Shown in pieces: positions 39,315 to 39,972 of a stretch of DNA of 59,532 nt. Every line of letters begins with the position of its first letter. Position 1 is the first letter of the stretch. The DNA is taken from the sequence record PV189403.1; one strand, given 5' to 3'. Made by a program: the position numbers and the translations under genes. Below the pieces are notes generated by a model. It worked only from the letters and a program-made list of their open reading frames with translations, ran no database searches and was not told the origin of the DNA. The stretch comes from Escherichia phage vB_EcoP_phi315.

Positions 39315-39339
39315 TAAAAAGGCCCTCACACTGGAGGGC
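39315..39339 (-). terminator. intrinsic terminator (minus strand) after the N-cIII moron
   Basis: GCCCTC-acactg-GAGGGC hairpin followed on the minus strand by TTTTTATATG. Confidence 0.5.
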
Positions 39340-39443
39340 AAAGAAGATTTCCAATAATCAGAACAAGTCGGCTCCTGTTTGGTTACGAGCGACATTGCTC
39401 CGTGTATTCACTCGTTGGAATGAATACACAGTGCTTATTCGTA

Positions 39444-39914
39444 CTAATAAAACACCCAGTTTTCTGTTTCTTGGTTGTGTCCAAAGTTATATTCAATATC
39501 TGGTGTTGATGTATCAATATTCTTCATCCCATCAACAAGAGTTGATACAACAGCCAAATCTTGTTTTATTCTCATTAAATGGTATTTCTTCCGGCGCAAT
39601 AAACTTTCAATAGCAAGTTTCTTCGTTGGGAATGCAAAAGATCTTTCTGCATTTTTTGCTACTTTCTTAATTGCATATCTATTTCTCCTTTGTTTCCATT
39701 CCTGTAACCACTGATTTGGTGCTGGTTTAAAATTAACAATCCAATGCGCAGGAACCAACCATGCATAATGCTCTGTCTGATGAAAAGCTATATATTGAAG
39801 TGCGAATATTTTTATCCCATCTTCTTCAACTGTCGCCTGGAATCTCCAGAAAACAGGCATTCCATCATGTTCAGTTTCTGATTCAGGAAAAGGTACGCTC
39901 CATGATTTTGTCAT
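39444..39914 (-). CDS. hypothetical protein (AT-rich moron between N and cIII)
   Basis: 156-aa ORF with GAGGTG RBS in the lambda ral/ea10/sieB position; clearly lower GC than flanks; no recognisable motif. Confidence 0.5.
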   Translation of the reverse strand: MTKSWSVPFPESETEHDGMPVFWRFQATVEEDGIKIFALQYIAFHQTEHYAWLVPAHWIVNFKPAPNQWLQEWKQRRNRYAIKKVAKNAERSFAFPTKKLAIESLLRRKKYHLMRIKQDLAVVSTLVDGMKNIDTSTPDIEYNFGHNQETENWVFY

Positions 39915-39972
39915 ATATCACCTCAAATAAGTGGTTTGCTGCCTAATTTCATTTTCTGGCGACCAACACAAG

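Follow-up and report, generated by a model that had tools for sequence, protein, structure and literature searches.

Among the accessory proteins known from the interval downstream of the antiterminator gene N in lambda-type phages are Ral, which enhances EcoKI-type modification, and SieB, a membrane protein. Here we analyse the corresponding interval of Escherichia phage vB_EcoP_phi315 (hereafter phi315), in which an AT-rich open reading frame (ORF) of 156 codons, ORF156, lies behind N in the early leftward (pL) operon. The window, i. e. the whole stretch of DNA that was analysed, comprises the 59,532 nt of sequence record PV189403.1, and all coordinates refer to it. The phage has been described as a Traversvirus of the non-Stx (Shiga toxin) kind, PV189403 (PMC12502783).

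The same part of the lambda pL operon gives rise to a small RNA (sRNA). As described in a preprint (bioRxiv 10.1101/2024.10.31.621285), the ral-ea10 interval of lambda encodes LPR1, renamed PreS, an Hfq-dependent sRNA of ~88 nt which is processed to ~68 nt and whose 3' end is the terminator tL2a. PreS is made in the lytic cycle only, where it activates translation of the host gene dnaN and represses alaS. In the same preprint the primers P810, P969, P1103 and P1104 set its 5' end to GAGCAATGTCGCTCG, its 3' end to GAGGGCGATTTTTTA and its seed to TGTTCTGATTATTGGAA.

Our reading of the phi315 locus is that the pL operon contains a cargo slot which here holds ORF156, and that ORF156 would encode an early nucleic-acid-binding accessory protein. 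As a whole we give this reading a probability of roughly 0.55. The anatomy and the identity of the region, as laid out in the following sections, we consider close to certain.

The cargo slot between N and PreS

By comparison with related loci, the region from about 39435 to 39975 is a cargo slot of the pL operon, bounded upstream by the 3' end of N and downstream by a unit of ~120 nt made up of a hairpin, PreS and tL2a. In minus-strand order its features are:

39973..40356, minus strand: N, antiterminator of the H-19B/933W type, annotated n in Stx2 phage 86 (100% identical) and N in 933W and HK97
39915..39972, minus strand: spacer between N and ORF156, 58 nt, in which the 3' end of a lambda/phi21-type N survives as a remnant out of frame (ending in VTCVGRQKMKLGSKPLI and a stop)
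39444..39914, minus strand: ORF156, 156 codons and 156 amino acids (aa) in the ORF list, ATG at 39914-39912; it is L0079 of 933W, gp45 of HK97 and orf57 of Stx2 phage 86, and belongs to PHROG 1636
39402..39429, minus strand: hairpin, a perfect 9-bp repeat GTGTATTCA-N10-TGAATACAC that ends 1 nt before the PreS 5' end
39316..39400, minus strand: PreS (LPR1) homologue, counterpart of the Hfq-dependent lambda sRNA, with the 5' end GAGCAATG at 39400 and the 3' end at ~39316
39365-39349, minus strand: PreS seed TGTTCTGATTATTGGAA, identical to that of lambda
39339-39316, minus strand: terminator tL2a, GCCCTC-N6-GAGGGC followed by five T (stem 39339-39322, U tract 39320-39316)

In 80 loci that were collected with no other criterion than the PreS motif, the gene closest upstream of the hairpin came from 19 unrelated families, with Ral in 21 loci, ORF156 in 14 and an Nmad5-domain protein in nine. 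Further occupants are a pentapeptide-repeat protein, DUF7446, a putative membrane protein and many unknowns. Several genes can share the slot; in one locus, for example, ORFs of 98 aa and 67 aa follow ORF156. phi296 and phi367 carry ORF156 and Ral together. The commonest breakpoint of homology to the window is 39975, the stop codon of N (34 of 86 related loci). The break on the other side lies at 39436, immediately ahead of the hairpin, or at 39312-39316, the point at which loci with and without ea10 diverge.

The spacer behind N can be read as part of an ORF (39923..40039, minus strand) that overlaps the 3' end of the H-19B-type N out of frame, and the old N stop codon, TGA at 39925-39923, overlaps the Shine-Dalgarno sequence GAGGTG of ORF156. 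Elsewhere among the related loci this tail is read in frame and closes N genes of the phi21 and the lambda type; ORF156 is found behind N genes of these two types and of the H-19B type. The conserved N tail appears to serve as a recombination joint by which downstream cargo is moved between N types.

The G+C content (GC) of ORF156 is 35.9%, and 27.4% at third codon positions (GC3). The whole window has 49.4%, N has 49%, and the values of gam, bet and exo are 50-52%; of all 471-nt stretches only 1.8% reach the AT-richness of ORF156. The sequence data support the view that ORF156, in the sieB/ral position, is an accessory gene of foreign composition that moves horizontally. An earlier note on this DNA had called it a single-gene moron, AT-rich relative to its flanks, in the lambda ral/ea10/sieB position and embedded in an otherwise lambda-like kil-cIII block. 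The composition was confirmed, as was the position between N and cIII. The moron stands in so far as the gene is foreign and mobile, with junctions at 39975 and 9 nt past the ORF stop; it does not stand with respect to a terminator of its own, and no promoter-like site was found.

A sigma-70 scan of 38800-40800 by simple consensus match gave no promoter-like site between N and ORF156; the sole promoter-like match in this interval was a pL-like one at 40624-40596. Likewise, a scan for intrinsic terminators gave no convincing candidate between N and ORF156. ORF156 would be transcribed from pL together with N, and we regard such early pL-driven expression without a promoter of its own as likely. 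The first intrinsic terminator after pL would be tL2a; therefore the expression of ORF156 should be no later than that of N. The ORF156 mRNA would end in the hairpin/PreS unit, and both the ORF156 protein and PreS would appear as soon as lytic development begins. A perfect inverted repeat of 10-11 bp at 40604-40634 overlaps the pL-like site and is presumably an OL operator.

ORF156 and its protein family

ORF156 has the ribosome-binding site that the earlier note had assigned to it, GAGGTG at 39924-39919, 4 nt 5' of the ATG. The 851 bases spanning the gene recur without a single difference in Stx2-converting phage 86 and in phi419, and the protein is 100% identical in 933W, Stx2 phage 86, BP-4795 and Min27 and 99.4% identical in HK97. 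It matches the profile of PHROG 1636 ("unknown function") with an E-value of 2.7e-112 (residues 1-156 versus profile positions 1-156). The gene is carried by 82 phage records and by 598 of 5426 complete E. coli genomes, in up to four copies each, where it is always annotated as "hypothetical protein". A literature search on L0079, HK97 gp45, phrog_1636 and lambdoid accessory or anti-defence genes found no paper on the protein, and it was not among the supplementary sequences of one accessory-gene screen. As a sequence object, ORF156 is by these identities an already catalogued, uncharacterised orphan and not new.

Its pattern of substitutions marks ORF156 as a real gene under purifying selection. 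The ratio of nonsynonymous to synonymous substitution rates (dN/dS) is 0.07-0.15 among the Pectobacterium, Brenneria, Rosenbergiella and E. coli copies (pairs with unsaturated synonymous sites). Over 20 homologues of 55-85% identity, which come from prophages of Pectobacterium, Brenneria, Rosenbergiella, Cronobacter and Symbiopectobacterium and from one Salmonella phage, 40 columns are invariant. Moreover, 29 DNA variants differ from the window copy at up to 12 positions while the protein is unchanged except in HK97 (one amino acid); as this set was chosen by protein identity, it is supporting evidence only. A profile search of 1.84 billion representatives gave 87 relatives, mostly of 135-155 aa and 20-25% identity, and full-length homologues reach down to 20% identity. 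The distant relatives correspond to PHROGs 1636, 13631 and 25384, and all 64 aligned relatives match the PHROG 1636 profile. Their conserved core is KR.xK..SRFAF.TK..A...L..RK, to which a near-invariant G, [E/Q]T and K are added.

The relatives lie in early-left prophage operons beside recombination genes (YqaJ/RecE, SSB, RdgC, Erf) and C5/orphan DNA methylases, or they come first in early operons. Among the neighbours of the distant homologues no recurring partner gene was found, only the recurring early-left operon setting.

The ORF156 protein has a mass of 18.6 kDa and an isoelectric point (pI) of 9.07 (family median 8.98). It is without a hydrophobic segment, the maximum Kyte-Doolittle mean over 19 residues being 0.56. 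Judged by its composition, it is a soluble, basic protein and hence neither an acidic DNA mimic nor a SieB-like membrane protein. Residues 76-118 contain 15 K/R versus 2 D/E, a net charge of +13, and this basic strand-loop-helix is the most conserved feature of the family. An AlphaFold2 (AF2) model built on the alignment of 64 sequences predicts a single domain, with a predicted local distance difference test score (pLDDT) of 94.7 and a predicted template modelling score (pTM) of 0.81; a model built with 20 close homologues reached a pLDDT of 59.5 and was discarded. The elements of the predicted fold are three strands (residues 19-30, 33-46 and 50-55), a further short strand (83-86), two short helices and one helix of 33 residues (98-130); the C-terminal tail is ordered and aromatic.

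The earlier note had recognised no motif in this protein, and in agreement with this, Pfam, NCBIfam and PADLOC (PADLOC-DB 2.0) contained no family for it or for its 64 relatives. The remote-homology and structure search that the note had proposed gave no characterised relative among the sequence libraries, the PDB and BFVD. The best E-values in a PDB sequence-profile search with the family were 0.46-0.66, i. e. no match, and Foldseek found nothing below an E-value of 1 for the model in the PDB. In BFVD, the collection of viral predicted structures, the model matched uncharacterised phage proteins only, from phages of Erwinia, Achromobacter, Delftia, Rhizobium, Sinorhizobium, Tenacibaculum and Cellulophaga. 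These include Erwinia phage phiEa2809, Achromobacter phage phiAxp-3 and Delftia phage RG-2014, some of the phages concerned being probably virulent.

Several candidate relationships were rejected. Isolated weak matches to Tmem26, zf-H2C2, Cas1_II (E 0.018), AbiEi, JetA and others concerned one family member each and were regarded as noise. Readings of the conserved residues as GIY-YIG, AP2 or PD-(D/E)xK were discarded because the motif spacing is wrong and no structural match speaks for them. P22 gp17 and lambda Ea10/Ssb, which also occur in the N-cIII interval, proved unrelated, with hhalign probabilities of 2.3% (gp17) and 0.1% (Ea10). Neither is ORF156 similar in sequence to Ral: its Pfam and PHROG matches are only to families of unknown function, and Ral is a separate family among the slot occupants.

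The hairpin, PreS and tL2a

About 9 nt past the TAG of ORF156, from ~39434 downwards, near-identity to the ral-ea10 intergenic region of lambda begins. In HK544 this block is found behind ral and in 933W behind L0079, and the 129-nt hairpin-PreS block is present in 367 phage records versus 82 with ORF156. From these comparisons, the terminator and the inverted repeat are part of the lambda backbone (PreS/tL2a) and not of the ORF156 unit. The earlier note had correctly placed a perfect 9-bp inverted repeat at 39402-39429. Yet its assignment of the repeat to the gene has to be revised, since the repeat is the conserved hairpin of the lambda-type PreS backbone, and so does the view that the terminator is the gene's own, since it is lambda tL2a.

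The 79-nt core of PreS (39322-39400) differs from lambda by a single C/T exchange; with a pattern accepting the lambda T or the window C at this one variable site the core matched with 0 mismatches. The predicted fold consists of a 5' stem, a small stem-loop in the seed region and the terminator hairpin. In the minimum free energy fold both ends of the seed are paired and its centre forms the loop. Five of the six pairs in the tL2a stem are G-C, and UUUUU follows. A scan with Rfam 15 gave no family at the PreS interval. A 31-codon ORF, MSLVTKQEPTCSDYWKSSLPSSVRAFLYAYQ, at 39300-39395 (minus strand) spans PreS and the terminator; its 3' end crosses the junction at 39312-39316 and varies between phages. 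Probably it is not a gene.

As RNA, the hairpin in front of PreS has a stem of 12 bp, including one G-U pair, and a 4-nt loop, CAAC. Perfect 9-bp inverted repeats are common in the window (12 versus 3.1 +/- 2.0 in random sequence); hence the hairpin is judged real because it is conserved and not because of the length of its repeat. Among 194 sampled segments that bear the PreS 5' motif, the stem occurs in four versions of unrelated sequence, all of them 11-12 bp long and ending exactly 1 nt before GAGCAAT: GTGTATTCATTC, TATAGCAGATT, AATGCGGA... (ES18 type) and AATGACCAT.... For every stem type, at least 499 of 500 shuffled sequences fold less well. Thus the sequence has been replaced while structure and position were kept, which argues for the hairpin being a functional partner of PreS and not of ORF156. 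It may mark the 5' end of PreS, or protect and stabilise the upstream mRNA after cleavage. A PreS promoter inside the hairpin was considered and rejected, as no -10 element, judged by eye, is conserved across the four hairpin types. The full lpr1 deletion made in the lambda work keeps the hairpin in place, and in the sections of the preprint that were searched no mention of the hairpin was found (bioRxiv 10.1101/2024.10.31.621285). A short motif, RGCACY, precedes all hairpin types.

On the far side of tL2a two further elements are found:

39282..39301, minus strand: second hairpin, AACGCTTCACTCGAGGCGTT with a T-rich tail, an exact match to lambda 33493-33512 between ea10 and cIII
39208..39266, minus strand: cIII 5' thermoregulator RNA (Rfam RF01804, 88.5 bits, E 4e-21), at the start of the lambda-like cIII-kil-gam-bet-exo block

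The two hairpins of the lambda tL2 cluster are only ~20 nt apart in phi315 (39282-39345) because ea10 is absent. In 933W ea10/ssb lies between tL2a and the second hairpin, and in lambda ea10 is likewise found there. On the other side of N, a second AT-rich island (40836-42913, minus strand, 33-38% GC) occupies the interval between nutL/N and cI. As in 933W and phage 86, it contains three small ORFs and, at 41003-42049, the gene of Stk, a eukaryote-like Ser/Thr kinase of 348 aa. Stk is a prophage-encoded exclusion function directed against HK97.

Possible function and comparison with known systems

What ORF156 does can be addressed here by a reasoned guess, the best we can offer. The protein would be a single-domain basic protein, with a fold that has no solved relative, which binds nucleic acid early in lytic growth through residues 76-118. 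Nucleic-acid binding is proposed because the basic strand-loop-helix is the most conserved feature in the 64 relatives. Moreover, the family occurs in phages of several bacterial phyla, and a universal ligand such as nucleic acid fits this better than a lineage-specific host protein. Binding remains tentative, at somewhat less than even odds. A possible role of such a dispensable accessory protein would be to protect or assist the incoming or induced phage genome against host nucleases or defence. Genome protection is favoured because those slot occupants that can be recognised (Ral, Nmad5, the pentapeptide protein) have to do with the modification or restriction of DNA, and an early genome helper also because the relatives adjoin recombination genes and orphan DNA methylases. 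A role in counter-defence proper, argued by analogy, we consider rather doubtful.

Several points weigh against this reading. No experiment and no homology ties the ORF156 family to any activity, and a basic patch, taken by itself, says little about nucleic-acid binding. ORF156 is not simply a substitute for Ral, with which it co-occurs in phi296 and phi367. Most of the other slot occupants are themselves of unknown function, so that guilt by position is a thin argument. As to expression, the promoter scan used the plain sigma-70 consensus, which a weak or activator-dependent promoter or expression in the lysogen may escape, and the terminator scan between N and ORF156 covered terminators of the intrinsic, not the Rho-dependent type.

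Among the alternatives, the least improbable one sees ORF156 as a self-contained moron with its own signals and terminator, the product of which would be an anti-defence protein, either Ral-like in alleviating restriction or another immune inhibitor. The foreign composition and the location in exactly the sieB/ral slot of lambda fit this, yet the terminator and the hairpin belong to the lambda PreS/tL2a backbone and the consensus scan found no promoter. The slot also holds Ral, the Nmad5 (nucleotide-modification-associated) protein and the pentapeptide-repeat protein, and distant relatives lie near phage DNA methylases and a DarB-like gene; ORF156 itself, however, has no similarity to Ral or any listed family, occurs side by side with Ral and is basic instead of being a DNA mimic. 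Structural relatives are found in phages of several other genera; some of these phages are probably virulent, which would fit counter-defence better than prophage defence. On the other hand, ORF156 was not flagged in the AntiDefenseFinder run reported for these phages: the DefenseFinder anti-defence search in the paper on phi296-phi419 lists only methyltransferases, Ral and Gam (PMC12502783). We consider this alternative unlikely as a whole; our analysis neither supports nor excludes the anti-defence idea as such.

Less likely again is a DNA-binding regulator or a helper in DNA transactions (lysis-lysogeny decision, recombination or replication) that is not an immune antagonist. It would make use of the same conserved basic patch and the long helix, and it agrees with the YqaJ/RecE, SSB, RdgC and Erf modules beside relatives in early-left operons and with ea10/ssb being the next gene in 933W. 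However, the placement of the relatives with respect to recombination genes varies, and lambda manages without ORF156.

A prophage-expressed gene for defence or superinfection exclusion, similar in function to the SieB found at this position in lambda and P22, seems quite improbable. In its favour, ORF156 shares the slot of sieB and is AT-rich, accessory and carried by a temperate phage, and the neighbouring cI-N interval bears the exclusion kinase Stk. Against it, sieB is read from the opposite strand and from a promoter of its own; ORF156 points in the direction of pL transcription and lacks both a promoter-like site and a membrane segment. In addition, PADLOC was blank for ORF156 and its 64 relatives, and the predicted-structure matches are all phage proteins, from several genera. 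Finally, that ORF156 is a chance reading frame, the functional element lying on the other strand (where plus-strand ORFs of 61-101 aa overlap the region) or being non-coding, is effectively refuted by the low dN/dS in the minus-strand frame, the protein kept across the DNA variants (a set selected for protein identity), the distant full-length homologues and the confident AF2 model.

ORF156 as an early nucleic-acid-binding cargo protein could be taken one step further. In the ORF156 superfamily (PHROGs 1636, 13631 and 25384), with a fold absent from the PDB, the basic surface would bind nucleic acid from the first moments of infection and so disarm DNA- or RNA-targeting defence, and the hairpin would be a conserved biogenesis element defining the 5' end of PreS. 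We regard this model as unlikely; if true, it would mean a new class of counter-defence in ~11% of E. coli genomes, the Stx phages included.

As it stands, ORF156 is an ordinary orphan accessory gene that would not surprise a lambda specialist. Still, it is present in clinically important Stx phages (933W, Sp5-like, phage 86), in the laboratory model HK97 and in about one in nine complete E. coli genomes. A confident model without a solved relative, combined with the presumed early expression, makes it a reasonable candidate for screens for counter-defence or host-takeover functions, for which HK97 is tractable. For annotation, the "terminator" and "inverted repeat" that look moron-like are to be read as the PreS sRNA locus. 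By-products of the analysis are the conserved hairpin abutting PreS and the definition of the N-to-PreS interval as a cargo hot spot, which can be mined systematically, the 19 families in 80 loci being mostly unknown.

How does the locus compare with known systems? L0079 of 933W, gp45 of HK97 and orf57 of Stx2 phage 86 are the same protein at the same site directly after N, with the same hairpin-PreS block downstream. In 933W ea10/ssb lies between tL2a and cIII, whereas phi315 and HK97 are without ea10/ssb; otherwise there is no difference of substance. Ral of lambda, the commonest occupant of the slot, shares with ORF156 the place between N and hairpin-PreS and is likewise small, dispensable and transcribed from pL. 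With 66 aa versus 156 aa the two proteins differ in size; they are without sequence similarity, and both are present in phi296 and phi367. SieB of lambda and P22 is encoded in the same interval downstream of N, but in the P22 layout sieB lies on the strand opposite to pL and is expressed from the prophage, with a promoter of its own. ORF156 runs in the same direction as N and lacks a promoter-like site. With morons of the Hendrix type (promoter, gene and terminator) ORF156 has in common the foreign composition and the sharp mosaic borders; unlike them it has no promoter of its own that we could find, and its terminator is conserved backbone. For PreS, finally, lambda and phi315 share the core, the seed, the terminator stem and the place in the pL operon. 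They differ in the length of the U tract after the stem, which is five in phi315 versus six in lambda, and in the neighbours, which are ORF156 upstream and cIII downstream in phi315 as opposed to ral and ea10 in lambda.

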